A stretch of DNA of 64,000 bases from positions 5,039-69,038 of the forward strand of contig CAZQPP010000001.1 of the NCBI GenBank assembly GCA_964594295.1, given 5' to 3'. Both the position numbers and the translations under genes were made by a program. The notes beneath the pieces were generated by a model, which searched no databases, was not told the origin of the DNA, and saw nothing but the letters and a program-made list of their open reading frames with translations. This DNA is from an uncultured Myxococcales bacterium. GTDB taxonomy: Bacteria; Myxococcota_A; UBA9042; UBA3505. Position 1 is the first letter of the stretch; every line of letters begins with the position of its first letter. Below, one piece after another: positions 26,806-42,189 of the stretch.

Positions 26806-29800
26806 CTAGATCTGCTCCGGGGCCTGCTCGTCGAGGGGCGCCGCGACCGACTGAAGCTCGCGTGCCAGATCTGCGGCCGACGCGAAGCGCTGCTCGGGCT
26901 CCTTGGCAAGGCACTTGCGGATCAGCTTGTCGAGCTCCGCGGGCACCTCCGCCCGCTCGCGGCGCGGGCTCGGGACTGGATCCCTGGCGTGCGCCATCCC
27001 GGAGGCGAGCGCCGTCTCCTTGCGGAAGGGAGCGCTCCCCGTCAGGAGCTCGAAGAGCACGACGCCGAGGGAGTAGATGTCCGAGCGCGCTGTGGGCTCC
27101 TTCCCTTCGAACTGCTCGGGGCTCATGTACTCCGGAGTGCCGACTGCCATGCCGGTCATGGTCAGGGTGATGCTCTCCCTCGATCGGGCTATGCCGAAGT
27201 CGGTCAGCTTGACCCGGCCGCCTTCGAAGAGGAGGAGGTTCGCCGGCTTGATGTCGCGGTGGAGGATCTCCGCCGCGTGGACCGCCGACAGGGCGTCGCA
27301 GACCTGGCCCCCGATGTCGAGCACCTGCTCTACGTCAAGGGGCAGGGGAAGCTCGCTGGCGTCGAGGGCGACCCGATCGCCGCCGGCGGGCCAGCCGGTG
27401 GCCCGCTCCATGACGATGTAGAGGTCGACCAGGGTGTCTCCCGAGCCGAGCACGCGGGTGATGCTCGGGTGATCGAGGTCCCTGGCGTTGCTCGTTTCGA
27501 GGAGGAAGCGCTCGACCATCGAGTGGTCACCGAGGTAGCGGTAGGGCAGGAGCTTGAGGGCCAGCGCCGCCGCGTCCCCACCTGCCTCCTCGTCCTTCAC
27601 CTCGTAGATGTCGGCCATGCCGCCGCTGCGGAGGTGAGCCAGCACGCGGTAGCGCTTGTCGATCAGGACTCCCGGCTCGAGGCGCTCTCGTGCAGAGGCG
27701 CCGTCGACACGCAGCAGCCTGGCCTTGCGGCGGCGCAGCTCGGGACGGCGAAGCTCCGTCGCGAGCTCGGCGCGCCCTTCCTCGAGCTTGAAGCTGTGGG
27801 ACACGGGCTTGTCGTCGTCATCATCGATGACCGGCGATCCCGCGATCCCGCGGTACTCCATGCGGCGGGAGCTCACCTTCCGAAGCACGAAGAGGTGTGC
27901 CTTGTGACAGTCCGGGCAGTCGCGGTGCACGTAGAAGGGGTGGAGGTCCAAGACCTCCCCCTTTGCCGGGCTGACGCAGTAGACGTGCTGCGCGCTCAGC
28001 TCGAGGTCCGACTGGACCACGGAGTGCTCGGCGGTGCCGTGGAAGCCCATGAGGAGCCGGCAGCTGTGTTTCCGCAGCCCGTGCTCAGCGCTGGCGTGGT
28101 CCACCGCGACGAGGGGGTAGTCCTTGAGGAAGGCGACGCTCTGCAGGAGGCGCAGGACCGCGGTCTTGAAGTCCTTCAGCTCGGCTGGGGTTGGCGGTGT
28201 GCCTTCGCGACGTTTCAGCAGGTCGTTTCGCTGCTCGACCAGGGCGTCGATTGACTTCAAGAGGTGTCGTGATCTCTCGCCGTACAGCTCGGAGAGGAAG
28301 GCCTCCCCGTGACCGGCCGTGGTCTTGAGGGCGTCGCGCAGCAGCCCCGTCCAGTCGCCCAGGCTCGGTGGTTTCTTGAGTCGCTCCAGGAGTGGGCCTG
28401 CCGTGGCGGAGGAGACGGCGATGGCATCGCTGAAGGCCAGCACGGCCAGGTGCCGCACCGTGCAGCTCAGCAGGTCCGCGAGCTGGCTCAAGCGAGCGCC
28501 GCTCCGAGCCCCTTCGCGAAGGCCGTAGCACGCCCGGGCGACGGGGTGCGGGAAGCGGTGCTCTACGGCGTTGAGCAGCAGGGCCGAGGGGATCTCGGCG
28601 CTGGAAGGAGGCGACGCGGCGGCTGGTGCCGGAGTCGCCGCGGTCGTCGCCGGCATCATGCGCTTCATGAGTTCGGCCGTCGCCGGGGCCGAGGTCACCG
28701 AGAAGATCACGACGAGCGAGGCGTCTCGCCGCGCCGCGATCTCCATGACCGCGTCGAACATCACCCCGGCCGCCTCGCGGGGGTGGATTCCGCCGGCTCG
28801 GGCCGCGAGCAGCGGCAGCGCCACGCTGGTCCAGCCGCGCTCCGTCGCTTCCTCGAGGCATCGCCGCACGACCTCGCGGAGGATCTCGGTGTCGGGCGGC
28901 CTGCCGGTGAGATCGTCGATCACCCCGGCGTGGATGACGTGCCGGGCCGGTAAGCGCCCTGCCGCGGTTACGCTGACGCCGCCGTGCTCCAGCGGACCGC
29001 TACACGAGGCCTCCCGGTCGATCTCCGCGCCACCGCGGCGCTGGATGGCGCCGTGTACGCTGCGGGACGGGGCCTCGCGGACCCGAAGGCTGCGGCTGCG
29101 GGAGACCGCGATCGCGTCGACGGACAGGGAGCAGATGTCCGCGGTGGTGAGCTTGACGAGGCACTCCCCGAGGGCGACCTCGGCGTCGGACTCGATGTCT
29201 CGCGGGTCGGGGCGTGGTGGGCCGTCGTGAGCGCCGGGAGGTGCGGCCTCCGCAGACGAGGGCGCCTGTTCACGCTCCCAGCGCTCTCGGGCTTCCGGCC
29301 CGATTTCCGGCAGCCCCGGTCCGGGAGCGCCGAAGACGCCCTTGGGCTCCCAGCGGTGGTCGATGTGGAGAGGGTGGATCGCGTGTCCGGCCTGGGCCTG
29401 CTCGATCTGGCGCCGGTAGTCTGCCGCCATCGGACCGACGACCTCCCGGAATGCCCATGCAGTCAGGCAGGCGCGGTTCTGGATGAAGGTGAGGCGGTCC
29501 TCGAAGGGCCAGCCGAAGACGACGTCAAAGCCGGCGCGTTGCGCGTCGGCCAGGGTCTCCAAGCTCTCGACCGGCACGGTGGGAACCGCCAGGAGACGGA
29601 GATCGATCGAGCCACCCTCGCTCGCGACCGTGCTTCGGCCCAGGTCGGCAAGAGGCTCGGATAGGTCGATGGCGCGTTGCACACTCTTGCCCAGTGGCTC
29701 TTTGGAGCTGCCTGCGTCGGGAGATCCGAAGGTCCCCGCGATGCCGATCTTGGGTTCCTTGGCGATTGCTTCGAGTGGGTCCAGCGACAGGATGCGTTGG

Positions 29801-31824
29801 TCGATCGCGGGAGAAGCCCTTGCAACGAGCCAGTCCAGGACCGGGTTCAGATCATGTGGATGAATAGGACGCTTTCCGTCGACGGTGAGCTCGGGACGCC
29901 AAAGCAGATCCTTCAGCGGCGACTCCGTTACAGCCCCGTGGGCCAGCTCCTCGAGAGAGCAGGAGCCTTCGTCTGTCACTGGCTCTATGAACACGTCTCG
30001 AGCACGTCGCCAATCGCGTTGGATTGAGGTCGCCTCCTTGCATGAGCGCAAGAGCGTATCTGCGGCAATCACGGTGGCCTTTCCGGTGGTCCGCAGCTTC
30101 GCCAGACACCCCCTGCACTCCTCTGTCAGGGCGCTGAGCACCTGTGGTTTGGCGGAAGCGATCAGCACAGGAACAGCCTCTTCAGCGAGCTGCACGAGGC
30201 GCTCCATAGCAGTGGCCTTGGCAGCTTCAAGACCCAGCGTGCGAAAGAAGAAGAGGCCGCCGGCGGAGGATGCCAGCTTCTCTTCGAGGTCTGTTGTCAG
30301 CTTCCATGGCTCGTTCATGAGGGTGGGCCGAGCCATGACGACAGAGGCCTCGTCCGCCCAGGATGACATGCGTGTCAAGAGAGCAAGAATCGACTCACGC
30401 CAGTCGAGAGGGTGAAGCTCACAGTCGCGCCAGAGCCGCTCGAAGAAATCGTCCCGGCGGATCTCGTCCACAAATGCGGACGTCGACCTTGCGATAGGCC
30501 GCTGTGTTGCAACGAGCCGGTCCCTGACTGTGGCCACGATTGGCCGTAGCTCGGGAGCGCGATGCGACAGGGCGGACACGCTGGCTCGAATAGCGTCGCG
30601 GTCAACCGCCGCCAGAGCTACCCGCTCCAATTCTCCTTCATGGTCCCGCAACATGCTCAGAATTCGCTCTGCGAGCCTCCCCGAGCTGCCGCGGGGCGCC
30701 ACTTCCGCACCTGTCCACGCACTGCCGAGCATCTCGAGTGTGCGCGCGGCGACCTCGTCCGCGCAAAGGCTCACAAAACGCTCTCGTTGCCGCACCCGTA
30801 TTGCCGAGACCCCCGCCGTCTCGTATCGCCTGGGTGACAGACCTGGGGCTGGCACTGCGATGTGGGGCAACTGGTTTGACTTCCAAGCGGCAAACCTCCC
30901 GGCGAGGGGGTCGATGCTGGATGCCAGGGCGATCTCCGCCGCTGCCCGGAGGTTTTGCGTGGTCGTTGCAGCGTGACCTCCGAGCAGGCAAACGCTCTCG
31001 AATGGGGCGTTGCTTGCCTTGTCTTCCCCGGGCCTCCCGTGGGGATCGAAAACGAGCGGCATCGACGGCCGGCCGCCGGCGCCCGCGGTGTGCGGGATGG
31101 CCATGAAGGCGTCGATCTCCTTCAAGGCGGCGTAGGCGTTCGAGTTGAGGTGGCCGTGGTCGGAGATCTCCCTGAACGCCGAGGGCAGGAGGAGAAGGGC
31201 CTCGAGCCGGGGGGGCTTTCCGGAGAGTCGCTGCCACAGCGACCGGACCAGGTATGCCGCCGGCAGCAGGATGGCGCCACCCGTCTCGCCGCACAAGGAG
31301 GCAGCGAAGAGCAAGCGATACGGCGCCGTCGAGTCACGTGAAGCCGCCGCAGTTGAGAGGCGGTCGTACTCGGCGCGCAGTACCTCGCGGAAGCCGCTGT
31401 TTTCGGCAAGATGACAGTAGAAGCGCAGGCGGCTCAGGAGTCGCGAGCCGCCTGCGCCCTTTTGTAGCTGCCTCGAAGTGGACAACAACTCCGAGTAGGA
31501 GGGACCGAGCCAGGACCCCAACCGAGCGTCGTCGGCGCGACGCTCCAGCTTCTCGTAGTTGTCTGCCTGCCGGGCAAGGTCGCGCCCTGTCATCCCAACG
31601 GTCTGCACCGGCTCGGCCAGCGGCTCCGCGGGCTCCCAGAAGTCGGCGCACACGAACCCGACCCGAGCGCGGATGTCCTCCCAACGCGTTGACTCTTGGA
31701 GGCGGCGAGCGACCGTGTCGACGATCCGCGTCCCGGCCCCGCCGAGGCCGATGAAGATGGTCGGCCTCGCGGCCAATGCCGGCCCTAACCGGTGACCACG
31801 GCCCCGGAGGGCGTGGTCTCGCAA
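26806..31824 (-). CDS. Giant multidomain protein: N-terminal tubulin/FtsZ-like GTPase-like domain (tentative), macro (ADP-ribose-binding) domain, degenerate HEPN-like helical domain, and C-terminal active Ser/Thr protein kinase
   Basis: ORF-track 1672 aa. The N-terminus PTIFIGLGGAGTRIVD is GxGGxG T1-loop-like, and CGETGGA is T4-like. The macro segment reads VDAIAVSRS...SVHGAIQRRGG...AGRLPARHVIHAGV...SVALPLLAARAGGIHP. The segment LLKSIDALVEQRNDLLKRREG...FLKDYPLV is paralogous to the HEPN-like N-termini of the 10995 and 36147 proteins, but His is replaced by Lys. The kinase carries HRDIKPANLL, DFG and GTPEYMSPE. Confidence 0.8.
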   Translation of the reverse strand: MRDHALRGRGHRLGPALAARPTIFIGLGGAGTRIVDTVARRLQESTRWEDIRARVGFVCADFWEPAEPLAEPVQTVGMTGRDLARQADNYEKLERRADDARLGSWLGPSYSELLSTSRQLQKGAGGSRLLSRLRFYCHLAENSGFREVLRAEYDRLSTAAASRDSTAPYRLLFAASLCGETGGAILLPAAYLVRSLWQRLSGKPPRLEALLLLPSAFREISDHGHLNSNAYAALKEIDAFMAIPHTAGAGGRPSMPLVFDPHGRPGEDKASNAPFESVCLLGGHAATTTQNLRAAAEIALASSIDPLAGRFAAWKSNQLPHIAVPAPGLSPRRYETAGVSAIRVRQRERFVSLCADEVAARTLEMLGSAWTGAEVAPRGSSGRLAERILSMLRDHEGELERVALAAVDRDAIRASVSALSHRAPELRPIVATVRDRLVATQRPIARSTSAFVDEIRRDDFFERLWRDCELHPLDWRESILALLTRMSSWADEASVVMARPTLMNEPWKLTTDLEEKLASSAGGLFFFRTLGLEAAKATAMERLVQLAEEAVPVLIASAKPQVLSALTEECRGCLAKLRTTGKATVIAADTLLRSCKEATSIQRDWRRARDVFIEPVTDEGSCSLEELAHGAVTESPLKDLLWRPELTVDGKRPIHPHDLNPVLDWLVARASPAIDQRILSLDPLEAIAKEPKIGIAGTFGSPDAGSSKEPLGKSVQRAIDLSEPLADLGRSTVASEGGSIDLRLLAVPTVPVESLETLADAQRAGFDVVFGWPFEDRLTFIQNRACLTAWAFREVVGPMAADYRRQIEQAQAGHAIHPLHIDHRWEPKGVFGAPGPGLPEIGPEARERWEREQAPSSAEAAPPGAHDGPPRPDPRDIESDAEVALGECLVKLTTADICSLSVDAIAVSRSRSLRVREAPSRSVHGAIQRRGGAEIDREASCSGPLEHGGVSVTAAGRLPARHVIHAGVIDDLTGRPPDTEILREVVRRCLEEATERGWTSVALPLLAARAGGIHPREAAGVMFDAVMEIAARRDASLVVIFSVTSAPATAELMKRMMPATTAATPAPAAASPPSSAEIPSALLLNAVEHRFPHPVARACYGLREGARSGARLSQLADLLSCTVRHLAVLAFSDAIAVSSATAGPLLERLKKPPSLGDWTGLLRDALKTTAGHGEAFLSELYGERSRHLLKSIDALVEQRNDLLKRREGTPPTPAELKDFKTAVLRLLQSVAFLKDYPLVAVDHASAEHGLRKHSCRLLMGFHGTAEHSVVQSDLELSAQHVYCVSPAKGEVLDLHPFYVHRDCPDCHKAHLFVLRKVSSRRMEYRGIAGSPVIDDDDDKPVSHSFKLEEGRAELATELRRPELRRRKARLLRVDGASARERLEPGVLIDKRYRVLAHLRSGGMADIYEVKDEEAGGDAAALALKLLPYRYLGDHSMVERFLLETSNARDLDHPSITRVLGSGDTLVDLYIVMERATGWPAGGDRVALDASELPLPLDVEQVLDIGGQVCDALSAVHAAEILHRDIKPANLLLFEGGRVKLTDFGIARSRESITLTMTGMAVGTPEYMSPEQFEGKEPTARSDIYSLGVVLFELLTGSAPFRKETALASGMAHARDPVPSPRRERAEVPAELDKLIRKCLAKEPEQRFASAADLARELQSVAAPLDEQAPEQI

Positions 31825-32042: not shown

Positions 32043-35000
32043 ATGAGCGAGCTGGCCGAGCGGTCGCTGTCGATCTTCTTGAGCTACGGGCACGACGAGA
32101 GAGCCGCCGACGCGCTGGAGATCAAGGCCGACCTCGAGGCTCGCGGGCACACGGTGTGGTTCGACCTCGAGAGGCTTCGGGCCGGCCGTGACTGGGCGGG
32201 GTACATCGAGGAGGGGCTCGACGCCTGCGACCTCGTGGTGCTGCTGATGACGCCGCACTCCGTCAGGCGGCGCGAGCGCTCGGAGCCCCACTCCACGGAC
32301 GGCTTCTGCCTGAACGAGCTCGCCAGGGCCCTCGAGCGAAACAAGACGGTCATCCCGGTGATGCTGGCCTGGGTCGACCGGGGGCCGCCGCTCGCCATCA
32401 GCCGCGTCCAGTACCTCGACCTCACCGACTGCGTGCCCATCGACCGGGAAGACGAGCGTTATCGTCGCCGCTTCGCCCGCCTCGTCGACGCCGTCGAGCA
32501 CGGCAACCTCGACATGGGAGGGGCGCAGGCCCGCCTGCAGCGCTACCTGCGGCCGCTGGACTTCAGCCAGGACATGGCCCCGCACATCGCCGGCTTCCGC
32601 GGCCGCAGGTGGGTAGATGCCCTCGTCGACGAGTGGCTCGACGAGCGCCCGGACTCCCAGCTCCTCTGGATCGCGGGTGGGCCGGGCCTCGGCAAGACGG
32701 CCCTGGCCACGCACCTCCAGCGCCGCCACGACGCCGCGGCCTGCCACTTCTGTGTCTTCGGCCACGAGGACAAGGCGAACGCGCGCCGAGCGGTGCTCTC
32801 CATCGCCTACCAGCTCGCGGCAGCCTTCCCGGAGTACTTCGAGAGCCTGAAGGCGGTCCCTCTCGAGGAGGAGCACCTCAAGAACGCGCACACGCTCTTC
32901 GACAACCTGCTGGTGACGCCGCTGCGCCGGATCGAGGCGCCCGATGGGGGGGGGCTGGTGATCCTCGACGCCCTCGACGAGGCCGCATCGGGGGCCCGCA
33001 ACGAGCTTGCAGAGCTCGTGGCATCCGGGTGGCGCCGCCTGCCGTCCTGGCTTCGCCTCATCGTGACGAGCAGGCCCGAGCCGGAGCTGCTGCGGCGCAT
33101 GGGAGGCCTCCGGCGGCCGGTGGAGCTCGTCGGGGAGGATCCGCGCAACCTCGAGGACCTGCGCGAGCTTGTCGTGGCGAACCTTGAGGAGTCGGGCTTG
33201 GACGCGCCTCCCGAGACGGTGGCCCGCATCGTCGAGCACAGCGGCGGCATGTTCCTCTACGCGGTGCAGGTCTTGGAGGAGATCCGCGATGGCGAGATCT
33301 CCGTGCACGAGCCGGAGTCCTTTCCCCGTGGGCTCGAAGGGTACTACGGGCGCTTCTTCGAGCGCCGATTCGCGGATGCGCGAGGATACGACGAGGAGAG
33401 CCGCCCGCTCCTCGAGGCGGTGGTCGCGAGGAGAGCGCCGCTTCCCCTCGGCCTGCTCGCCGAAACCCTCGATGTGCCGCTCTTCGAGCTGTCACGCAGG
33501 CTGCGACAATGCGGCTCGCTCTTCCCGCCGCGGCGGAGCGGTGAGGAGGAGCGGGACTGGACGGTGGAGCCCTTCCACAAGTCGGTTGTGGACTGGCTGA
33601 CCAGCAGCGACGAGCACGGCTACCACCGCGCCGGCGACTTCGCGGTCGACGTCGAGGCGGGCCGGCGTCGGCTCGCAGAGGCGTGCGAGGGGTGGGGGCG
33701 TTTGGAGGGTGCGGCGCGGTGCTACGCCCTGGCGCACGGTGTGCGGCACCAGCTCGAAGCAGGTCGTCTCGAGCAGGCCGCGGAGGCGCTTTGTGACTTC
33801 GGCTGTCACCACCACCGGGTCGAGGCCGGCGGAGCGGACGCGGTGACCGAGACCGTCGGCGACTTCATTCGCACAGAAGAGGCGGCGGCGAAGGCCCGTT
33901 GGGTTGGGCCCCACTGGGACTTGCTCCAAGAGTGGCAGGCCTTCTACAGGGAGCGCTCCCACAGGGCACGCCGGCACGAGAGGCCGGAGCTGGGACTGCT
34001 GCAGGCGGCCTACGCACACGCAGAGCGGAGCCACGTCAGCCGAAGCGCGGAGGGCTGGCTTGCGAAGTGGGGCCCGAGCGCCTCCTGGCTTCGCGCCGTT
34101 CGCAGGCCCCCCGAGGCGCGCGCCAGTGCCTGCCTGATGACGCTCCCGGTTGACGCCGCCTCCGTCGCGCTGGACTCGGCGGGCAAGCGGGCGCTCTCGG
34201 GGGGCTTCGACGGGGTCGTGAAGCTATGGGACCTGGAGACGGGCGCGTGCCTGCTCGCTCTCGAGGGACACACGGAACAGGTGATCGCCGTCGCCTTTCG
34301 GGGAGAGGGCGAAGTGGCGTTGTCGGTGAGCCTGGACGGCACTATCGGGCTCTGGAACCTCGCCTCGGGCACCTGCCTGCAAACCGTCGCCTGGGAGGCG
34401 CGCAGTGCGATCGCTGCCACGACCGACACGGAGGGCGGGCTGGTCTTCTCGGCACATCAGGAGCGGGACGAGCCCGGAAGCTGCGAGACGACCTTGAAGC
34501 TCTGGGAGCTGGAGACCGGCGCCTGCCTGCACACGATGGAGGGGCACGCGGATGCTGTGGATGCCCTCGCGGCGATCCCTCCGCGCGGCCGAGCCGTCTC
34601 GGGTGGCTGGGACGGGAAGCTCAAGCTCTGGGACCTTGAGAGCGGCAACTGCCTCCGCGTCTTGGAGAGCTATGCCCACATGGTGACGTCGGTCGCGGTC
34701 GATCCTTCGGGCCGGTGGGCCGTCTCCGGCAACGATTCCGGAGGATTGGAGCTCTGGGACCTGGAGACGGGAGCTTGTTCGGGCATCTTGGAGAAGCACG
34801 ACTTCTTCGTGGCTGCCGTCGCGTTCGCGCGCACCGGCCAGCGGGTGTTCTCGGTTGACTACCATGGGACGATCAAGGCGTGGGATCTCGAGACCGGCGA
34901 ATGCCTCCGCACCATCGACGGCGACGGGCAATGGTTCCACGGAGGCAGCGGTGTGCCCGTCGCCGCCCTGGACCCGGAAAACCGGCGGGCCGTTACGGGG

Positions 35001-36086
35001 ATCGGCGGAAGGACTCTGAAGGTCTGGGACCTCGAGACGGCCGCACACGCGCCGAGCAGAACGGAGCACGCGGAAGCGGTGTACGCACTTGCTGTCGACG
35101 CCGAGCGAGGGAGGGCTGTCAGCGGGAGCGCCGACCACTCGCTGAAGCTCTGGGATCTCGAGAGCGGTGACTGCTTGAGCACCCTTCGTGGCGTCTACGG
35201 AGCCGGGATCCTGCGGACGCCTTTGGCGTTCGACGCAGCGAGGGGGCGTGTTGTCACCGAGGACGGCCCTCTTGACGGTACGCTTGGGCTCTGGAGCACC
35301 CGGTCAGGCACGCTTCTGCGCACCCTTGAGGAGCACACGGGCCCTGCCAACGACATCGTCTTGCTCGACGAAGGCAAGCGGGCGCTCTCGGCGGGCGGCG
35401 AGACCCTGGAGGTCTGGGATCTTCGGAGCGGTGAGCGCCTGCGCACCCTCGTCGGGCACAGGGCCAGGGTCACCGTCGTCGAGCCGTGGAAGGAGGGCCG
35501 TCGAGCGATCTCGGGAAGCGAGGACGACTCGCTCCGGGTCTGGGACGTGGAGATCGGCGAGTGCCTGCGCACCCTCGAGGGGCACACCGCCTCGGTGACC
35601 GCCCTCGCGTTGTGCCGGCAGGACCGGTGCGCCCTCTCCGGGAGCAGCGACGGCACGCTCAGGCTGTGGGAGCTGGAGACGGGTGACTGCCTGCACGTCC
35701 TCGAAGGGCACACGAGCGGCGTGAACGCCCTGGCCGCCGACCCCACCGGCCGCGTCGCCCTCACGGCCCGCCGCCACGGGGCCATGAGGCAGTGGGACCA
35801 GCGCGCGGGCGCTTGCCTCCGCCTCCTCGAGGGGCACGAGGACTGGGTCAAAGCGGTCGCCCTGGCCCCGGGGGCAGGGCGCGCGGTCTCGGGGAGCACG
35901 GACAACACCTTGAAGGTCTGGGACCTTCACACGGGCGAGTGCCTCGCCACCTGGGTCGCAGAAGGTGCAGTGTTGTGCTGCGCGTGGCCTCCTGGCCGCA
36001 TCGTCGCCGGAACGGGCGCCGGCGAGGTCCTGATCCTCCGGCTCACCGATGCCGGCCCGTGGCGTCCGCGGCCACGAGGCGCGTGA
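32043..36086 (+). CDS. TIR-NACHT(STAND)-WD40 protein
   Basis: ORF-track 1347 aa. AGGAGG lies 3 nt before the ATG. TIR-like N-terminus (SIFLSYGHDE...VVLLMTPHS). NACHT Walker A LWIAGGPGLGKTAL and Walker B GGLVILDALDEA. At least 14 WD40 repeats (GH...WD motifs) follow to the C-terminus. Confidence 0.9.
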   Translation: MSELAERSLSIFLSYGHDERAADALEIKADLEARGHTVWFDLERLRAGRDWAGYIEEGLDACDLVVLLMTPHSVRRRERSEPHSTDGFCLNELARALERNKTVIPVMLAWVDRGPPLAISRVQYLDLTDCVPIDREDERYRRRFARLVDAVEHGNLDMGGAQARLQRYLRPLDFSQDMAPHIAGFRGRRWVDALVDEWLDERPDSQLLWIAGGPGLGKTALATHLQRRHDAAACHFCVFGHEDKANARRAVLSIAYQLAAAFPEYFESLKAVPLEEEHLKNAHTLFDNLLVTPLRRIEAPDGGGLVILDALDEAASGARNELAELVASGWRRLPSWLRLIVTSRPEPELLRRMGGLRRPVELVGEDPRNLEDLRELVVANLEESGLDAPPETVARIVEHSGGMFLYAVQVLEEIRDGEISVHEPESFPRGLEGYYGRFFERRFADARGYDEESRPLLEAVVARRAPLPLGLLAETLDVPLFELSRRLRQCGSLFPPRRSGEEERDWTVEPFHKSVVDWLTSSDEHGYHRAGDFAVDVEAGRRRLAEACEGWGRLEGAARCYALAHGVRHQLEAGRLEQAAEALCDFGCHHHRVEAGGADAVTETVGDFIRTEEAAAKARWVGPHWDLLQEWQAFYRERSHRARRHERPELGLLQAAYAHAERSHVSRSAEGWLAKWGPSASWLRAVRRPPEARASACLMTLPVDAASVALDSAGKRALSGGFDGVVKLWDLETGACLLALEGHTEQVIAVAFRGEGEVALSVSLDGTIGLWNLASGTCLQTVAWEARSAIAATTDTEGGLVFSAHQERDEPGSCETTLKLWELETGACLHTMEGHADAVDALAAIPPRGRAVSGGWDGKLKLWDLESGNCLRVLESYAHMVTSVAVDPSGRWAVSGNDSGGLELWDLETGACSGILEKHDFFVAAVAFARTGQRVFSVDYHGTIKAWDLETGECLRTIDGDGQWFHGGSGVPVAALDPENRRAVTGIGGRTLKVWDLETAAHAPSRTEHAEAVYALAVDAERGRAVSGSADHSLKLWDLESGDCLSTLRGVYGAGILRTPLAFDAARGRVVTEDGPLDGTLGLWSTRSGTLLRTLEEHTGPANDIVLLDEGKRALSAGGETLEVWDLRSGERLRTLVGHRARVTVVEPWKEGRRAISGSEDDSLRVWDVEIGECLRTLEGHTASVTALALCRQDRCALSGSSDGTLRLWELETGDCLHVLEGHTSGVNALAADPTGRVALTARRHGAMRQWDQRAGACLRLLEGHEDWVKAVALAPGAGRAVSGSTDNTLKVWDLHTGECLATWVAEGAVLCCAWPPGRIVAGTGAGEVLILRLTDAGPWRPRPRGA
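33900..36086 (+). repeat. Duplicated ~2-kb module (helical linker plus WD40 array), copy 1; paralogous to 38040-39911
   Basis: Protein segments WQAFYRERSHRARRHERPELGLLQAAYAHAERS...ACLMTL and ...ECLATWVAEGAVLCCAW...GEVLILRLT are mirrored in the second protein (WRSFFQVNAHKMRIHERPEIGLLQAAYAHAEQS...ACLMTL, ...ECLATWVAEHAVLCCAW...GEVLILELT). The nucleotide sequences are visibly similar, e.g. ctgctgcaggcggcctacgc. Confidence 0.6.
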
Positions 36087-36146
36087 GCGCCGGCGACTTC
36101 GGCTGCGCTCTCCCGCGGTAGTCCCCCTTCGAGGGCCTGTGCCATA

Positions 36147-39100
36147 ATGCCGCAGGTGAGGATGCACAGCACCATCACGGACCTGGCAATCACGCGGCGG
36201 ATGCCGGAGCCGATCGCCTGGGCCTGGCACAACGTGCGCGCGGCGCGCGGCGGGCATCCGCACGAGCACTCGGCGCAGCTCATCGGGGCCCTGGACGTCA
36301 CGCTCCGGACGCTGGTGTCGCTGCTCTTGCCGGACTACCTGCGCGGCGCGCCTGATCCGCGCATCGAGGACGAGCTGTCCTGCCTGGGCAGGCCCTCCCT
36401 TGGCGCCTACCGCGACCTGATCCGCTCTCTGCTCTCATCCCTGCGACAGCGACGGGAGCCCGGCCCCTTCTTCCCCGAGGCCTGCGAGTGGTACTTCGAC
36501 GCCAAGGGCAAGCCCACACGCAGCGCTCGGGCCCTCTCCAGCCTCATCGAGCTGCGCAACGAGGACGCGCACGGTCGCGCGCGAACGGCGGCCCAGATGG
36601 CGCCCTTCGCGGACGAGGTCGAGGGGCTCATGGAAGACCTCCTCGCAGGCGCGAGGTGGCTGCGGGGCTACCGGATATTCCGCGTCCTCGACCCCAGGCT
36701 CGTGAGCCGAGCGCGTTTCGGGGGCCGCCTGCAGTTCCTCTACGGCTCAACGCCTCTCGGGCAGACGGAGAGAGCGTCGTGGGCGGCGCATCTCCTGCCC
36801 GACACCGTCTACGTTGCGTCCCCCGATGGAGAGCGGCTGCTCGAGGTCTCCCCCTTCTTCAGCACCCTCAACGACCCGAGCGTCAACGACAGGCGGCTCT
36901 TCCTCTTCGTGGCAGCGCCGAGAGGCAAGTGGCTGACGCTGCGGCACGACCAGAGCGGAGCGACGCAGGAGAAGCTCCTCCCCGCGATCGACGAGAAGGA
37001 GATGCCCTTCTCCACCTGGCTCGAGCGCCGCGAGGAGCTCGAGCCGGCATTGGCCAACTCCACGCCGGCGCCCTTTGCTGCCCTGGACTGGGCCGGCGTC
37101 GGGGATCTGCTCGGCGAGCGCTACCGTCTGCTCGAGCCCTTGGGGCGCGGTGGCATGGCCACGGTCTACCGGGTGGAGGACACCTACTTCGACGAGGAGC
37201 GGGCGCTGAAGGTGCTCACCGAAGAGGCCTCCTCCGACGAGCGCCTGTGCGCGCGCTTCCGGGCCGAGGCCAAGCTCATGCGCCACCTCGGCGAGCATCC
37301 CTACGTCCTCGGTGTCGACGACGTCTCGCCTCTGCCCGACGGGCGCTGGTGCATAGCGATGCCCGTCGTCGAAGGCGGCACGCTCCAAGACCAGCTCCAA
37401 GCAGGGCCCGTCGCACCCGAGCGTGTCGCGAGGTGGGCCCGCCAGGCCCTCGAGGCCCTTGACCACCTCCACGAGAACCACGTCTGGCATCGCGACATCA
37501 AGCCCTCGAACATCCTGCTCGACAACTTGGACGACACCATCCGCCTCGCGGACTTCGGGATCGCCCGCGAGGCGGGCTCCACGCTGCGCCTCACGCGAGC
37601 AACGGAGCGAATCGGGACGCAGGCCTACATGGCGCCCGAGCTCCTCGTCGAAGGTGGGGAGCCGGGGCCGGCGACGGACCGCTTCAGCCTGGCCGTCACC
37701 CTGCACGAGCTTGTGACCGGTGCGCTGCCGAAGGGTACGCCCGGAGAGGGGATCGGGGGCGAGCTGGGTTCGTTGATCCGTGCGTTGGGGCACGAGGAGC
37801 CGGCACGCCGGCTCGCTGCCGCGATCGGCGAGCAGTCTCCGCTCCCCCGAATCGAGCCCCCAAAGCGCCGCTCTGACTCAGATCACGCGTCGAAGCAGCT
37901 CGGATTGGAGATGGCCGTCGAGACGCTGACCGACTTCGGGCATCACTACGGTCGCCTGAAGGACGGTGGAGAAGACCCGGTAGCCGAGGTCTTCGCGGCT
38001 TTCGAGCGAGCCAGGGCAGCTGTCTCGGAGCTGGGCTGGGACGGGCCGCAGCTGGATGAGCTCGAGGAATGGCGGAGCTTCTTCCAGGTGAATGCGCACA
38101 AGATGCGAATTCACGAGCGACCCGAGATCGGCCTGCTGCAGGCGGCCTACGCCCACGCGGAGCAGAGCCCTCTCAGCCATGCCGCCCTGCACTGGCTGCG
38201 CAAGCACGGGCCGGATGCGCTGTGGCTCCGTGCGATCCGCCGGCCGCGCGAGGAGAAGCGCGGCGCGTGCCTGATGACCCTGGGGCGGCACACCGGCCGG
38301 GTGCAGGCAGTGGCCCTGGACCCCGAGGGTTGTCACGCGATCTCGCAGGGCGCGGACAAGGCAATCAGGCTCTGGGACCTGCAGACGGGCGCCTGCCTGC
38401 GTAGCCTCAAGAAGCACACCGCCAAGGTGGAGTCCGTCGCGCTGGGCCCCGGAGGGCGGCGTCTGCTCTGCGGCAACCGTGACAACACGCTCAAGGTGTG
38501 GAACCTGCAGACCGGCAAGCGTATCTGTACCCTGAGGGGCCACGGCGCAACCGTGAGGGCCGTTGCGTTGGACCGCGACGGCCGGCGGGCGGTCTCGGGG
38601 GGCGAGGACGAGAAGCTCAAGGTGTGGGACCTGGAGACGGGCAAGTGCCTGCTCACCTTCGAGGCGCAAGCTCGCTTCGTGCGGGCGGTCGCGCTGAGCT
38701 ACGAGGCCGGTCGCGCGGTCTCGGTGAGCGACGACGGGAAGCTCGACGTGTGGGACCTGGAGACGGGCTCACGCGCGCGTGCCCACTGGGTGCACGTCGG
38801 CTACATGCGCCCCGTCGCCTTGGACTGCGCGGGCCGTCGTGTGCTCACGGCGGGCAGGGACGGTGTGCTCGACCTCGTTGAGATCGAGACCGGGGACATC
38901 CTGCGCAGCATCGAGATCGGCGACGCGGAGCCGGACTCCGTGGCGCTGGACTCGCAGGGCCGGCGCGCGGTCCTGGGGCACGATGACGGCACGCTGAATC
39001 TGTGGGACCTCGAGACGGCAGCGCAGCCGCGCTCTTCGGAGGGGCACCTCGAGGAGGTGACCTCCGTCGTGCTGGATCCCGAGCGCCGGCGAGCCGTCTC

Positions 39101-39911
39101 CGGGAGCTCTGATGAGACGCTGATGGTCTGGGACCTGGAGACAGGAGGGCGCCTCGACACGCTCGCTGGACACACCAAGGGAGTAACGGCTCTCGCCATC
39201 GAGCCCAAGGGCACGTGCCTGGTATCGGGGAGCGATGACGGGACGCTCAAGGTGTGGGACCTGGAAGCCGGTCAGCGTGTGCGTACCCTCGAGCGTCACA
39301 CGGGCGCCGTGAAGAGCGTTGTCGTGGACCCCGAGGGCCGGCAAGTGGTTTCGGGGAGCAGCGACAACACGCTGAGGGTCTGGGACCTGGGGACGGGAGA
39401 GCTGCTTCGCACCCTGCGGGAGCACGCCGCTCCGGTGACAGGCCTCTCCCTGGACCTCGAGAGGCGCCATGTGCTCTCCGGGAGCATGGACGAGACCATC
39501 GTCCTGTGGGACCTGGCGACATGCGCGAACCTGCGCAGGCTGCGCGGCCACGCGGGTGGAGTGACGGCTCTTGCGTTGCACCCGCTGCGCCGGCAAGCCG
39601 TCTCCGGGGGGCGCGACGCCGCGTTGAGGTTGTGGGACCTTGAGGCAGGCGAGTGTGTACGGACCTTCGGGGGACACACGGGATACGTGTCGTCCGTGGC
39701 TCTGGACGCGCCCGGCGACCGACTCCTCTCGGGAAGCTACGACGGGACTCTGAGGGTATGGAACCTGCAAACCGGCGAATGCCTCGCCACCTGGGTCGCC
39801 GAGCACGCGGTGCTCTGTTGCGCCTGGAATGGCGGCCCCATCGTCGCCGGCACCGCCGCTGGCGAGGTCCTCATTCTCGAGCTCACCCCGCCCGGGCCCT
39901 GGTCACCTTGA
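36147..39911 (+). CDS. HEPN-like (RNEDAH) N-terminal domain, active Ser/Thr kinase, then a WD40 beta-propeller
   Basis: ORF-track 1254 aa. LIELRNEDAHG carries the R-x4-H motif. Kinase motifs LGRGGMATVYRV, HRDIKPSNILL, DFGIA and MAPELL. The linker plus WD40 part is paralogous to the C-terminal half of the TIR-NACHT-WD40 protein. Confidence 0.85.
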   Translation: MPQVRMHSTITDLAITRRMPEPIAWAWHNVRAARGGHPHEHSAQLIGALDVTLRTLVSLLLPDYLRGAPDPRIEDELSCLGRPSLGAYRDLIRSLLSSLRQRREPGPFFPEACEWYFDAKGKPTRSARALSSLIELRNEDAHGRARTAAQMAPFADEVEGLMEDLLAGARWLRGYRIFRVLDPRLVSRARFGGRLQFLYGSTPLGQTERASWAAHLLPDTVYVASPDGERLLEVSPFFSTLNDPSVNDRRLFLFVAAPRGKWLTLRHDQSGATQEKLLPAIDEKEMPFSTWLERREELEPALANSTPAPFAALDWAGVGDLLGERYRLLEPLGRGGMATVYRVEDTYFDEERALKVLTEEASSDERLCARFRAEAKLMRHLGEHPYVLGVDDVSPLPDGRWCIAMPVVEGGTLQDQLQAGPVAPERVARWARQALEALDHLHENHVWHRDIKPSNILLDNLDDTIRLADFGIAREAGSTLRLTRATERIGTQAYMAPELLVEGGEPGPATDRFSLAVTLHELVTGALPKGTPGEGIGGELGSLIRALGHEEPARRLAAAIGEQSPLPRIEPPKRRSDSDHASKQLGLEMAVETLTDFGHHYGRLKDGGEDPVAEVFAAFERARAAVSELGWDGPQLDELEEWRSFFQVNAHKMRIHERPEIGLLQAAYAHAEQSPLSHAALHWLRKHGPDALWLRAIRRPREEKRGACLMTLGRHTGRVQAVALDPEGCHAISQGADKAIRLWDLQTGACLRSLKKHTAKVESVALGPGGRRLLCGNRDNTLKVWNLQTGKRICTLRGHGATVRAVALDRDGRRAVSGGEDEKLKVWDLETGKCLLTFEAQARFVRAVALSYEAGRAVSVSDDGKLDVWDLETGSRARAHWVHVGYMRPVALDCAGRRVLTAGRDGVLDLVEIETGDILRSIEIGDAEPDSVALDSQGRRAVLGHDDGTLNLWDLETAAQPRSSEGHLEEVTSVVLDPERRRAVSGSSDETLMVWDLETGGRLDTLAGHTKGVTALAIEPKGTCLVSGSDDGTLKVWDLEAGQRVRTLERHTGAVKSVVVDPEGRQVVSGSSDNTLRVWDLGTGELLRTLREHAAPVTGLSLDLERRHVLSGSMDETIVLWDLATCANLRRLRGHAGGVTALALHPLRRQAVSGGRDAALRLWDLEAGECVRTFGGHTGYVSSVALDAPGDRLLSGSYDGTLRVWNLQTGECLATWVAEHAVLCCAWNGGPIVAGTAAGEVLILELTPPGPWSP
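38040..39911 (+). repeat. Duplicated linker plus WD40 module, copy 2
   Basis: See copy 1 (33900-36086). Confidence 0.6.
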
Positions 39912-39984: not shown

Positions 39985-40668
39985 ATGTCGCCCCGCCAGA
40001 AGTTCCCCCGCATCTACCACGTCCCCTGGAGCGCCGCCGTCGCCGCGGACGACCGGCGGCACAAGGACCTCTCCTTCTTCGAGGGAGAGGAGGTCGTGGT
40101 CACCGAGAAGCTCGACGGCGAGAACACCACGATCTACCCCGACGGCGCCTGCCACGCGCGCTCCTTGAGCAGCGGACCCCACCCGTCGCGAACGTGGGTG
40201 AGACGCTTCGCTGCGGAGATCGGGCACCATATCCCCGAGGGCTGGCGGGTCTGCGGCGAGAACATGTTCGCCGAGCACAGCATCCGCTACGAGGAGCTGC
40301 CCTCCTACTTCCTCGCCTTCTCGGTCGTTGACGAGGATGACACGGTCCTCGGGTGGGAGGACATGGAGGCCGTCTTGCGGGGTCTCGCCGAGGCCTCCGG
40401 TCGCGAGGTGCCGCACACGCCGGTCCTGTACCGGGGGGTGTTCGACGAAGAGGCGATAGCCGCGTTGTGGACCGGGCGCTCGGCATTCGGTCCGGTGGGT
40501 GAGGGCTACGTCATCCGGCTCGCCCGCGCCTTCCCGGTCTCTCAGATCACCGGTGGGGCAATGGCGAAGCACGTGCGGCGCGGCCACGTTCAGCCCGACA
40601 CCTCGCACTGGATGAGCGCTCCCGTGCGTCCGAACGGTCTCAGGGAGGATGTCGATGGACAGACGTGA
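39985..40668 (+). CDS. ATP-dependent RNA-ligase-like nucleotidyltransferase (small Rnl-type)
   Basis: ORF-track 227 aa. Motif I TEKLDGENT (KxDG, the adenylylated Lys). Motif IV-like GEGYVIRLA. Motif V-like AKHVRRGH. Confidence 0.6.
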   Translation: MSPRQKFPRIYHVPWSAAVAADDRRHKDLSFFEGEEVVVTEKLDGENTTIYPDGACHARSLSSGPHPSRTWVRRFAAEIGHHIPEGWRVCGENMFAEHSIRYEELPSYFLAFSVVDEDDTVLGWEDMEAVLRGLAEASGREVPHTPVLYRGVFDEEAIAALWTGRSAFGPVGEGYVIRLARAFPVSQITGGAMAKHVRRGHVQPDTSHWMSAPVRPNGLREDVDGQT

Positions 40669-40954
40669 CTTCAGCGCCGTCATCGGGCAGCTCCGCGCCA
40701 CGGGGAGGGCGCAGATGCGATTCGAGGGCGGCTCGATGCGCCCGCTGCTCGAGTCGGGGCGGGTATACACCTTCGAGTTTGCCGAGCGCTACGAGGTAGG
40801 GGACATGGTCTTCTGCCGCGTGGACGGCAGGTACATCGACGCCCACCTGGTGCGCGAGGTAGACGCCGAGAAGGGATACTTGATCGGCAACAACCTGGGA
40901 GGGAAGCCGGACGGGTGGACCTGGGAGGTCTTCGGGCGGATCGTGGACGCTTGA
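40649..40954 (+). CDS. Small protein with a LexA/S24-peptidase-like signature (tentative)
   Basis: ORF-track 101 aa, overlapping the RNA ligase gene by 20 bp. EGGSMRPLL resembles the GxSMxP Ser-nucleophile motif of S24/S26 peptidases. A downstream Lys (AEKGYLIGNN) could be the general base. Confidence 0.35.
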   Translation: MSMDRRDFSAVIGQLRATGRAQMRFEGGSMRPLLESGRVYTFEFAERYEVGDMVFCRVDGRYIDAHLVREVDAEKGYLIGNNLGGKPDGWTWEVFGRIVDA

Positions 40955-42189
40955 GCCTCCGTGCGCGCCCCCCGCGGCTGGTGCGGCCGGGAGGTAGTGG
41001 TACGGTAGCGCCGAATCCCGCGGAGGACGAAGTGGGCGGAAAGTGGGCTATCTCGGAGCTTTCGGTCGGCCAGGAGGTCGAGGCGACCTTCTGGGCGAAC
41101 CCGGTCAAGGAGTCGCGTCACCGCTACCGGGCTACCCATCTCGACGGGAAGCGTGCCCCGAAGGTGGTGCTCTCGAGCGATCGGCGCATCGCGCCCGGCG
41201 TGCCGTGCATCGTGCGGATCACCACGATCGCGAAGACGGCGCGGCCGGATCGCGGGCACATCGAGGTGGAGCTGGTTCACGCCCTCGACCTCCCCCTCGA
41301 AGGGGTCTACGTCGACCCCGTCGTGAAGACCAAGCTGCAGGTCTTGCTCGAGAGCGGGCTGAACATCCTGCTCGACGGGCCGCAGGGCTGCGGAAAGACG
41401 GTCATCGCGCGCGCGATCGCAGACACCCTCGGCATGAGGTTCGTCTTCTTCAACTGCAGCTCGGTCATCGAGCCGACGGACTTCCTCGCGACCATCCAGG
41501 TCCGAGCCTCGGAGGGGGGGCACCCGGTCACGGACTTCGTGAAGACCGATGTCCTGCGTGCGCTGGAGGAGGCCTCCGAGAACGACGGCGAGCGCTACCT
41601 GGTGTTCTTCGACGAGCTCAACCGCTGCCGGGAGAGCGCCCGCAATGCCCTGATGCCCGCCCTCGACGCTACCCGGAGAGTGTTCAACCCCATCGCCAAC
41701 GACTTCCTGGCGATCCCGCAGAACGTGCAGTTCATCGCCGCGGTCAACAGCGGGCGAGAGTTCAGCGGCACCTTCGGCGTGGATCCTGCACAGCTCGACC
41801 GCTTCGCACCCATCGCCATGGACTACCCGCCGCCGGCGGAGGAGCGGAAGCTGCTCGCCAAGCGTCACCCCGAGCTGAGCAGGCCTACTATCGAGTTTGC
41901 CGTCGAGGTCGCCCACGAGATCCGCTCCGCCCCTGACCTCGACCAGGGCCTGAGCGTGCGGGCCACCGACGAGGCGTGCCTCTACCTGAAGCACCCCCTC
42001 ATCGCGAGCAGGAGGGAGAGCATGATGGCCGAGGTGCTCAAGTCCTCCTACTGCGGCCGTTTCTTCGGGCGCTGGAACGACAGCTCCTCGGACGCCGGCG
42101 TGGTCTGGGTGATCATCGAGCGCAAGCTCGAGGAGCGCGCTCGGGCGAAGCACAGGCGCAGCGCGAAGGCGAAGGCCCGCCGCTCTTAG
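40915..42189 (+). CDS. MoxR-like AAA+ ATPase (AAA_5 type)
   Basis: ORF-track 424 aa; the N-terminal ~45 aa may be an over-extension. Walker A LLDGPQGCGKTV. Walker B YLVFFDELNR. Sensor FIAAVN. Lys-rich tail. Confidence 0.8.
   Translation: MDLGGLRADRGRLSLRARPPRLVRPGGSGTVAPNPAEDEVGGKWAISELSVGQEVEATFWANPVKESRHRYRATHLDGKRAPKVVLSSDRRIAPGVPCIVRITTIAKTARPDRGHIEVELVHALDLPLEGVYVDPVVKTKLQVLLESGLNILLDGPQGCGKTVIARAIADTLGMRFVFFNCSSVIEPTDFLATIQVRASEGGHPVTDFVKTDVLRALEEASENDGERYLVFFDELNRCRESARNALMPALDATRRVFNPIANDFLAIPQNVQFIAAVNSGREFSGTFGVDPAQLDRFAPIAMDYPPPAEERKLLAKRHPELSRPTIEFAVEVAHEIRSAPDLDQGLSVRATDEACLYLKHPLIASRRESMMAEVLKSSYCGRFFGRWNDSSSDAGVVWVIIERKLEERARAKHRRSAKAKARRS

Follow-up and report, generated by a model that had tools for sequence, protein, structure and literature searches.

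Two adjacent genes in the window, the whole stretch of 64,000 nucleotides that was analyzed, share one sensor module, comprising a helical linker, a WD40 array and an atypical last blade (the cap), which in gene A follows a TIR domain and a NACHT-type NTPase and in gene B follows a HEPN-like head and a Ser/Thr kinase (Table 1). The two sensor tails are old, diverged copies, with silent sites close to saturation. We consider it probable, with moderate confidence, that A and B are old paralogs in the sensor module only, that B represents this module joined to a head-plus-kinase unit, and that both proteins are conflict or immune sensors. A first-pass annotation of this DNA had put forward module duplication or shuffling with a swapped head, and this appears to hold more strongly than first proposed, given the rarity of the linker, the sister relationship of A and B, the position of the boundary at a domain junction and the independent head-plus-kinase module. 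Its view that the duplication was recent does not stand.

Both open reading frames lie on the plus strand at exactly the positions annotated in the first pass, which had also recognized their different N-terminal heads (TIR plus NACHT in A, HEPN-like plus kinase in B). Pfam finds TIR_2 and NPHP3_N/NACHT in A and Pkinase in B, and the head of B is tentatively HEPN. Gene A has a tripartite layout of effector (TIR, aa 11–134), NOD (aa 195–570) and linker plus WD40 (aa 571–1347), with Pfam scores of 76 bits (TIR_2), 83 bits (NPHP3_N) and 249 bits (WD40). The TIR fold is recognizable by profile (TIR_2 76–79 bits against a cutoff of 28), and a Glu is present within FCLNEL (aa 88–93), which we take, from known TIRs, to be the candidate catalytic Glu of the NAD+ pocket. 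The NACHT region scores 83–86 bits with NPHP3_N (cutoff 24.8) and 25.9 bits with NACHT, just under the cutoff of 26.7, and contains a Walker A motif (GGPGLGKT, aa 212) and a Walker B motif (LVILDALDE, aa 305) in which DALDE agrees with the NACHT-clade signature D[GAS]hDE (10.1101/2022.07.19.500537). The exact protein is present in the public protein collection as P0002, which clusters with no other protein at 90% identity; the best relatives reach 49–51%.

Gene B scores 142 bits with Pkinase (cutoff 31.7) and 296 bits with WD40. Its kinase is of the Hanks type and active-looking by its motifs, which include the Gly loop (GRGGMA, 333), HRD (HRDIKPSN, 448), DFG (469) and APE (496). The NOD module of A (aa 195–570) is absent from B, as is any P-loop NTPase domain by Pfam. 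The RNEDAH motif of the head agrees with the conserved Rx4-6H motif of the HEPN superfamily (PMC3710099), and the heads of P0151 and P0152 carry RNEEAH and RNRHAH. The HEPN fold, a four-helix up-and-down bundle, is tentative: there was no curated HEPN family match for this head in Pfam even at E ≤ 10, in NCBIfam or in PADLOC, and no structure in the PDB matched the model of the head significantly in a Foldseek search. Catalytic motifs are unbroken in the TIR and NACHT of A and in the kinase and RNxxAH motif of B, the TIR Glu being a candidate position. The public collection holds B from Met6 (P0001), and the 3' end of the gene agrees between two independent assemblies (L006 and L007), which rules out an assembly chimera at that end; their 99.99–100% identity to the window supports the assembly and is uninformative on divergence.

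Table 1. Positions in the window of genes A and B, their domains and the related upstream gene.
Feature	Positions	Strand	Basis
Upstream gene: Tubulin_2 - Macro - head - kinase, divergently transcribed	26806-31824	-	Pfam Tubulin_2, Macro, Pkinase
C-terminal part of upstream gene (aa about 1086-1650), homologous to B head + kinase	26875..28569	-	BLASTP
Gene A, 1347 aa: TIR - NACHT (NPHP3_N type) - helical NOD extension - linker - 15 WD40 blades	32043..36086	+	ORF, Pfam
TIR domain of A, aa 11-134	32073..32444	+	Pfam TIR_2 E 6e-22; PADLOC TIR models
NOD module of A, aa 195-570: NACHT NTPase (NPHP3_N/NACHT match aa 195-344) + post-NACHT helical region	32625..33752	+	Pfam NPHP3_N, NACHT, AAA_16
Linker of A, aa 571-700, start of module common to B	33753..34142	+	51% identity to B linker
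WD40 array of A, 15 blades, aa 693-1334	34119..36044	+	Repeat parsing, blade matrices, collinear path
Cap blade + tail of A, aa 1296-1342, ECLATWVAEGAVLCCAW...GEVLILRL	35928..36068	+	79-82% aa, 74-77% nt identity to B cap
Gene B, 1254 aa (1249 aa from ATG 36162): HEPN-like head - Ser/Thr kinase - linker - 13 WD40 blades	36147..39911	+	ORF, Pfam
Head of B, aa about 14-254: helical HEPN-like domain (tentative; RNEDAH aa 137-142), then small beta domain	36186..36908	+	
Ser/Thr kinase domain of B, aa 326-560 (Pfam match aa 326-528)	37122..37826	+	Pkinase E 2.5e-41; PADLOC kinase models
Linker of B, aa 582-711	37890..38279	+	Linker profile; AF2 model
WD40 array of B, 13 blades, aa 707-1246 (cap blade 39768-39884 included)	38265..39884	+	

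The homology of the two C-terminal halves noted in the first pass is far beyond chance, with a BLASTP E value of 1e-124 (42% identity over 646 aa) and a second HSP that reaches both C-termini. It runs from A571/B582 to both ends, with nothing common upstream, and takes in the 130-aa linker (51% identical between A and B), the WD40 array and the cap. The starts annotated originally, 33900 in A and 38040 in B, fall within the homologous region, and the true starts lie about 150 nt further upstream, at 33753 and 37890. The protein motifs quoted at that stage are real: HERPE[LI]GLLQAAYAHAE agrees at 16 of 17 positions and ACLMT occurs in both proteins. In the AF2 model of B (pLDDT 88.6) the linker consists of six helices (B 577–686) and its end forms beta strands at WLRA (693–696) and CLMTL (708–713); by homology to this model the linker of A is predicted to be helical as well.

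A word-indexed protein search with the linker alignment gave no match, and the family emerged from an exhaustive HMMER search with the linker profile, which recovered 151 clusters at E ≤ 1e-3 among 1.84 billion proteins (linker match within the family set, E 2e-39); a PDB sequence search with the same profile gave no meaningful match, and neither NCBIfam nor PADLOC had a model that matched the linker. WD40 repeats occur within 80 aa after the linker in 114 of the 150 members listed, a Walker A motif lies upstream in 57 of the 81 listed members that have more than 350 aa there, and the regions before the linker are DUF4062 or TIR, plus NACHT/NPHP3_N. From these matches the linker appears to sit almost always behind a NACHT-type STAND NTPase and before WD40 repeats. 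Among the 150 representatives listed a kinase precedes the linker in B only, and in one further member (P0104) a kinase comes after the WD40 repeats; the architecture of B (HEPN-like head, kinase, STAND-type linker and WD40), a single case in this set, appears to be new. A cap similar to that of A and B was detected in about 16 of the 150 proteins. In the linker tree A and B are sisters, with 51% mutual identity versus 46% or less to any other member, a small margin in a neighbor-joining tree of 130 columns with long branches.

The relatives of A (218 at E ≤ 1e-10) have the same head with WD40, TPR or HEAT tails. The linker belongs to the sensor, not to the NOD: aa 186–570 of A are kept in all 120 of the closest TIR-NACHT relatives listed, whatever their tail, and the linker is found in just four of these. 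The boundary of the A–B homology coincides with the NOD-to-sensor junction. A B-like neighbor was not found beside the closest relatives of A.

The near-identity that had been claimed at the nucleotide level was not found. Codon-aligned identity between the two tails is 59–74% (linker 60.7%, cap 73.8%, WD body 59.3%), the best collinear stretches that blastn aligns have 65.7% (565 nt) and 68.6% (293 nt) identity, and the longest exact common string is 20 nt, with a maximum of 16 in codon-shuffled controls. dS is about 0.9–1.5 and third-position identity is 49–58% (linker core 54%, cap 55%, WD body 49%) against 39% expected from composition, which is not the combination of high nucleotide identity and low synonymous divergence of a recent segmental or tandem duplication. 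The dN/dS values along the blades that the first-pass annotation had suggested were computed and are not interpretable, as dS is near saturation. The conserved motifs agree no better at third positions than the rest does, and we reject a recent gene conversion that keeps them alike. The likeness of the linker core and cap points instead to purifying selection, because silent sites there are nearly saturated.

Blades compared between A and B average 38% identity in amino acids and 55% in nucleotides, and blades within each gene average 37–39% and 54–56% (37% of amino acids within A and 39% within B, with a maximum of 57% in each). The result that the first pass had named as counting against it, identity no higher than for unrelated WD40 genes of the genome, is thus obtained for the propeller body, which lies at the within-gene repeat background. 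Three blades in all exceed this background: the first has 53% aa identity, the 'ETAA' connector blade 52% and the last 82% (the cap is 79–82% identical at the protein level). A weak trace of collinearity persists in the order of the blades (z = 2.7, p = 0.008), and along this path blades 2 and 8 of A have no counterpart in B. Repeat arrays with high internal conservation, such as the WD40, ANK and TPR arrays of fungal NLRs, diversify by unequal recombination; the very high within-gene repeat identity that marks such arrays was found in neither A nor B. With internal repeats only 37–39% identical and no identical tract longer than 20 nt, the suggestion that the tails are a substrate for homologous recombination and repeat diversification is not borne out. 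Scans of genome contigs (with full B and with the linker alignment) and of metagenome contigs (with the linker alignment) returned no relative or syntenic locus, and the exact sequences of A and B had no match in the contig collection. Because no orthologous locus was found in another lineage, the duplication cannot be dated nor its direction proven.

The head and kinase of B recur in the upstream gene, with 27% identity over 599 aa (BLASTP E 1e-27) for the two together and 23% over 247 aa (E 5e-7) for the head alone, and the head motif of that copy, QRNDLLKR, is without the His. A B-type head plus kinase also occurs in one metagenome contig (L002), and the two together form an independent module. 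The neighborhood further contains several MoxR-vWA pairs, one Hsp70-like and one tubulin-like gene, an RNA ligase and GmrSD genes, gene types that match the conflict systems of PMC7159879.

We now put forward a mechanism for the origin and function of the pair. The mobile unit would be the helical linker with a putative double WD40 propeller, which may be of the Apaf-1-like kind (7 and 8 blades behind a helical domain), and the atypical closing blade, the sole paralogous part of A and B. In this lineage, we propose, a copy of this sensor was fused at the usual NOD-to-sensor junction to a pre-existing HEPN-like plus Hanks-type kinase module, the module that recurs in the neighboring tubulin-Macro-kinase gene. 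Purifying selection on the protein would have kept the linker core and cap, and the ligand-facing blades would have drifted to the general WD40 background, leaving A and B two blades apart and probably recognizing different ligands. Both would act as cytoplasmic conflict or immune sensors within a defense-type island. Specifically, in A, as in other bacterial NLR-related proteins, ligand binding to the propellers would lead to oligomerization of the NACHT domain and then to TIR NADase activity. In B, which is without a NOD, ligand on the propellers would alter the association or activity of the kinase, and this would act on the HEPN-like head, possibly an RNase.

A different reading, which we consider unlikely, is that A and B form a physical pair through their linker and cap surfaces, in which the NOD-less B is recruited or regulated by oligomerized A. 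Paired sensor/helper NLRs would be one parallel and a guard/decoy arrangement another, and a single trigger would lead to both NAD+ depletion and kinase/HEPN activity. In keeping with this, the genes are on the same strand and 60 nt apart with no terminator-like site between them (a promoter and terminator scan gave 0 sites and is uninformative in 70% GC DNA), it is the linker core and cap that are most conserved and not the propeller faces, and B has no oligomerization NTPase of its own. However, family members without a B-like partner have kept the same linker and cap, and an intramolecular structural role, for example in propeller closure, would be simpler, the end of the linker being predicted to form strands in the model.

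Kinase-WD40 proteins are also ordinary signaling proteins in high-GC bacteria, and B could be one of these, a PkwA-type kinase with no immune role whose likeness to A is generic to WD40, which we hold to be very unlikely. The A–B blade identity does equal background, the nearest propellers of known structure are 2ymu and the WD40 domain of PkwA (35% identity), and kinase-propeller fusions are common in developmentally complex high-GC bacteria (PMC7159879). Against this, the non-WD40, family-specific linker (51%) and the atypical cap (about 80% aa) are specific features common to the two proteins and refute the absence of any specific A–B relationship; moreover, blade order is collinear, the genomic context is a conflict island, and no other kinase precedes the linker among the 150 family representatives listed. 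Finally, a recent tandem duplication followed by head replacement, with copies that still recombine, has next to no probability, for although A and B are close neighbors on one strand, each other's nearest relatives in the linker and nearly identical in short protein motifs, it is refuted by the nucleotide comparisons (identity, dS, the 20-nt longest tract and the third positions of the motifs, with no sign of recent gene conversion), the blade body lying at repeat background and blade numbers being 15 versus 13.

The essence of the reading that we prefer, old paralogy in the sensor module only, is that the swappable unit of a bacterial NLR sensor would start at the helical linker behind the NOD and not at the first WD40 repeat, and that an NLR sensor unit can apparently be transferred onto a completely different signaling head. 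The pair would form a natural experiment in which one sensor scaffold serves a NOD-dependent output in A and a NOD-independent output in B, both outputs being predicted. It also illustrates how short conserved protein motifs in a GC-rich genome, old and held by selection, mimicked a recent duplication.

Among known systems, bNACHT proteins (Kibby et al., bioRxiv 10.1101/2022.07.19.500537) and TIR-NACHT-repeat proteins (PMC13581612) have the same layout of effector, NACHT and repeat sensor as A, which differs in that its WD40 tail has a specific linker, present in 4 of the 120 nearest heads listed. Most strong members of the linker family are DUF4062-NACHT-WD40 proteins, which correspond in bacteria to the NWD1/NWD2/TEP1 architecture (bioRxiv 10.64898/2026.05.01.722283) and in which DUF4062 (a TIR-like NADase) and NACHT precede the same linker and WD40 sensor as in A and B. 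In A a classical TIR_2 domain takes the place of DUF4062, and B contains neither of the two. Compared with the PkwA-type kinase-WD40 proteins of actinobacteria, which were not found among the 150 linker-family representatives listed, B has in addition the HEPN-like head and the STAND-family linker, and differs also by its 13 blades, which include the special cap.

RNase L and Ire1 join a kinase to a KEN-type HEPN RNase, and RNase L also has a repeat sensor (PMC3710099); they resemble B in combining a protein kinase fold, a HEPN-type Rx4H domain and a repeat sensor. The order is reversed, however (HEPN-like, kinase and repeats in B versus ankyrin, kinase and KEN), and the tentatively HEPN head of B is not a KEN domain by sequence, so that the resemblance would be one of logic and not of membership. 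It is quite unlikely, in our view, that B is an RNase L/Ire1-like sensor-kinase-HEPN RNase with an NLR-derived WD40 graft that acts together with A; if it were, related triggers would set off both NAD+ depletion (A) and RNA cleavage (B), and the RNA ligase of the neighborhood would be the reset or repair arm.

The closest parallel to the sharing itself is provided by Avs7, Dsr1 and a HEPN protein, where one sensor is common to STAND and non-STAND defense proteins (PMC13581612). The A/B sensor, as linker profile and cap, likewise occurs both behind a STAND NTPase, in A, and in a protein without one, B, and the pair exemplifies how STAND and non-STAND conflict proteins share a sensor. It differs from the Avs7/Dsr1 case in that the sensor combines a helical linker with a putative WD40 double propeller, where that of Avs7 is a bent alpha-repeat, and in that the two carriers are adjacent, the non-STAND carrier having a kinase and a HEPN-like head.

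The adjacent genes A, encoding a TIR-NACHT-WD40 protein, and B, encoding a putatively HEPN-like head followed by a kinase and WD40 repeats, are, judging from their sequences, probably an old, diverged duplication of one sensor module, with the head swapped at the junction between that module and the NOD (the NACHT NTPase and post-NACHT helices of A). The first-pass annotation had located both genes correctly, as plus-strand open reading frames were found at exactly its positions, 60 nt apart, in a window of about 69% G+C throughout. The catalytic motifs of A (Walker A, GGPGLGKT; Walker B, LVILDALDE, which includes D[GAS]hDE, the NACHT Walker B signature; 10.1101/2022.07.19.500537) and of the B kinase (GRGGMA, HRDIKPSN, DFG, and APE) are apparently intact, the first 325 residues of B have no Pfam match, and both proteins are singletons at 90% identity. 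The public B protein begins at the second ATG (36162; MHSTIT...), five codons past the first in-frame ATG (36147). We propose that A is a bacterial NLR-type sensor in which the propellers would gate NACHT oligomerization and TIR NADase activity, and that in B a diverged version of that sensor would gate the kinase and the HEPN-like head without a NOD. These steps are drawn from what is known of the family, bacterial NACHT proteins of the layout of A acting in phage defense (10.1101/2022.07.19.500537), and a non-immune role for B is conceivable.

Table. Genes A and B, their domains, and other genes of the window
Feature	Position	Strand	Description
Hsp70-like ATPase	1156-3324	-	
ORF	4151-8053	-	1300 aa, high GC3, zero Pfam matches
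ORF	8050-11403	-	1117 aa, high GC3, zero Pfam matches
ORF	10995-13400	-	801 aa; partial sub-threshold kinase match (30.9 bits, cutoff 31.7)
CobT_C/vWA-type gene	16313-18181	-	
MoxR AAA_5	18178-21150	-	adjoins the CobT_C/vWA-type gene
MoxR AAA_5	25303-26736	-	
Tubulin_2-Macro-head-kinase gene	26806-31824	-	1672 aa; Tubulin_2 (aa 23-361), Macro (aa 921-1022), degenerate B-type head, complete Ser/Thr kinase
Gene A	32043-36086	+	1347 aa; Pfam: TIR_2 aa 11-134, NPHP3_N/NACHT-type STAND NTPase aa 195-344, WD40 from ~aa 700
Gene B	36147-39911	+	1254 aa; Pfam: protein kinase aa 326-528, WD40 from ~aa 710
RNA ligase (PF09414)	39985-40668	+	directly after B
ORF	block 39985-42189, between RNA ligase and MoxR	+	101 aa, overlaps both neighbors
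MoxR-type AAA ATPase	40915-42189	+	
HEAT-repeat protein	43081-48309	-	1742 aa, convergent
Short DnaE-like protein	48342-50870	+	842 aa; PHP, pol III alpha, and finger domains
HerA/TrwB-like ATPase	51506-53998	+	
GmrSD-type genes	54543-58534	+	two in tandem, ~160 nt overlap as listed
M48 peptidase-TerB fusion	61477-62790	+	

The C-terminal parts of A and B are clearly homologous: BLASTP aligns them from A576 and B587 onward (42% identical across 646 aa, E 1e-124), with a second alignment extending to both C-termini. The homology as a whole sets in at position 33753 for A and 37890 for B, about 150 nt upstream of the segment starts originally assigned. The shared module consists of a 130-aa non-WD40 linker (51% identical, with 16 of 17 positions matching in the core HERPE[LI]GLLQAAYAHAE, and terminating in ACLMT), a WD40 array, and an atypical last blade, the cap (ECLATWVAE.AVLCCAW...GEVLIL.L, 79-82% identical). 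A word-indexed protein search with the linker found no relatives; exhaustive HMMER searching across 1.84 billion representative proteins gave 151 clusters with E ≤ 1e-3, of which 25 had E ≤ 1e-10, and the list is headed by B (from Met6) and A themselves. Among the 150 listed linker proteins, 114 have WD40 repeats no more than 80 aa behind the linker, about 16 have a detectable A/B-type cap at their end, 7 share the TIR-NACHT head of A, and B alone has a kinase before the linker (protein P0104 has one behind its WD40 array); a Walker A motif lies upstream in 57 of the 81 listed members having more than 350 aa there. In strong matches Pfam places DUF4062 together with NACHT, NPHP3_N, or AAA_16 before the linker, DUF4062 being reported as a TIR-like NADase and DUF4062-NACHT-alpha-WD40 being the layout of human NWD1, NWD2, and TEP1 (10.64898/2026.05.01.722283). 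A neighbor-joining tree built from 40 linkers pairs A with B as long-branched sisters, and neither linker is more than 46% identical to that of any other member.

The AF2 model of the B module (pLDDT 88.6, pTM 0.84) comprises six helices (B 577-686) and then 52 strands, forming 13 blades, and a short helix at the 'ETAA' motif divides these strands into a leading set of 25 and a trailing set of 27. Since the conserved end of the linker (WLRA, CLMTL) is modeled as strands, it may, together with the cap blade, help to close or dock the propellers, which would account for the joint conservation of the two. A physical partnership of A and B, mediated by the conserved linker and cap, is an unsupported possibility; both elements are kept family-wide in proteins that have no partner, which favors an intramolecular role. 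The linker and cap are also specific common features of A and B, and these refute the view of B as a PkwA-type kinase with only generic WD40 likeness to A, insofar as it denies a specific relationship.

The first 700 residues of A have 218 relatives at E ≤ 1e-10 (best identity 49-51%), in MAGs labeled Deltaproteobacteria, Planctomycetes, Acidobacteria, Riflebacteria, and Methanocella; they carry WD40, TPR, HEAT, or kinase-plus-TPR tails. TIR, NACHT, and the post-NACHT helices (aa 361-570) are common to all 120 listed relatives, 18 of which have WD40 repeats and only 4 the linker, which places the linker with this particular WD40 sensor and not with the NOD. The A/B homology sets in at the junction at which such proteins ordinarily swap sensors. 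Some close TIR-NACHT relatives (P0157, P0158, and P0160; 48-50% identical to the head of A) carry kinase plus TPR behind the NOD, so kinases have joined this NLR family repeatedly and at different positions. The nearest relatives of A with an assignable contig position lack a B-like neighbor, and scans of genome and metagenome contigs gave no further relatives.

B itself is thus a mosaic in which a head-plus-kinase module is joined to the STAND-type sensor module, and head and kinase recur together in two other places. One is the tubulin-like gene upstream, divergent from A, whose last 600 aa are collinear with the first 560 aa of B (B aa 14-559; 27% over 599 aa, E 1e-27; head alone, 23% over 247 aa, E 5e-7). 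The other is database contig L002, where a B-type head and a kinase behind it (38% and 44% identical) line up in order with B aa 10-558, and neither linker nor WD40 follows. Two database sequences are related to this rare head, and on contig L001 it precedes an unrelated tail. On L002 (605-2231) the head homolog is in frame 2 and the kinase homolog in frame 3, as separate genes or as one gene split by a frameshift or assembly error, and the called head protein has an Arg/Ser/Pro-rich end. The B head is a plausible candidate for a HEPN-like domain; the upstream copy reads RNDLLK and lacks the His.

The duplication had been described as recent, with nucleotide near-identity and a potential for recombination between the repeats, and these parts of the earlier reading fail, whereas the C-terminal homology, the module duplication, and the head swap stand. 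The best collinear blastn pieces are just 65.7% and 68.6% identical, and codon-aligned identity is 60.7% in the linker, 73.8% in the cap, and 59.3% in the WD body. With the arrays split into 15 (A) and 13 (B) blades and compared all against all, mean identity is 38% aa and 55% nt between A and B and 37-39% aa and 54-56% nt within either gene, so that, by the refutation test which the first-pass annotation itself had set, the two propeller bodies resemble each other no more closely than WD40 repeats do generally; the blades above background are the first, at 53% aa, the one with 'ETAA' (A7/B6), at 52%, and the cap, at 82%. The interior blade order retains a collinear signal (permutation test, z = 2.7, p = 0.008), A blades 2 and 8 being unmatched, and with identity at background level this means that the arrays descend from one ancestral array and have diverged nearly to background. 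The linker, cap, and WD body have NG86 dS estimates of 1.5, 0.89, and 0.98, respectively, and third-position identity is 49-58%, where composition alone predicts 39%. This identity is not raised in the strongly conserved motifs relative to elsewhere, so it is selection on the protein, rather than recency or recent gene conversion, that maintains them. A recent duplication with copies still able to recombine is refuted by these data, the longest exact string common to both genes being 20 nt (at 33996/38133 and 35940/39780; maximum 16 nt in codon-shuffled controls).

The window as a whole is a conflict-type gene island, in which the DnaE-like, HerA/TrwB-like, GmrSD, and M48-TerB genes are typical defense-island content, and the RNA ligase lies beside a putative HEPN RNase, which suggests that the two pair RNA damage with repair. 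Contigs L006 (JGI metagenome contig Ga0118720_1009286, 99.99% identical over the block downstream of B) and L007, from independent assemblies, match the 3' end of B and the downstream genes at 99.99-100%, which confirms the assembly yet gives no information on divergence. Swapping heads where the NOD meets the sensor is an already known evolutionary habit of such systems; what is new is the unique architecture of B and the sharing of modules across three genes. Avs7, Dsr1, and a HEPN protein are a demonstrated case of one sensor common to STAND and non-STAND defense proteins (PMC13581612), and A and B likewise carry one sensor type in a STAND and a non-STAND protein. NTP-dependent conflict systems with components such as those of the island have been described (PMC7159879), and its MoxR, vWA, Hsp70-like, and tubulin-like genes are similar to the MoxR-vWA and tubulin/HSP70 conflict systems (Kaur et al., 2020).
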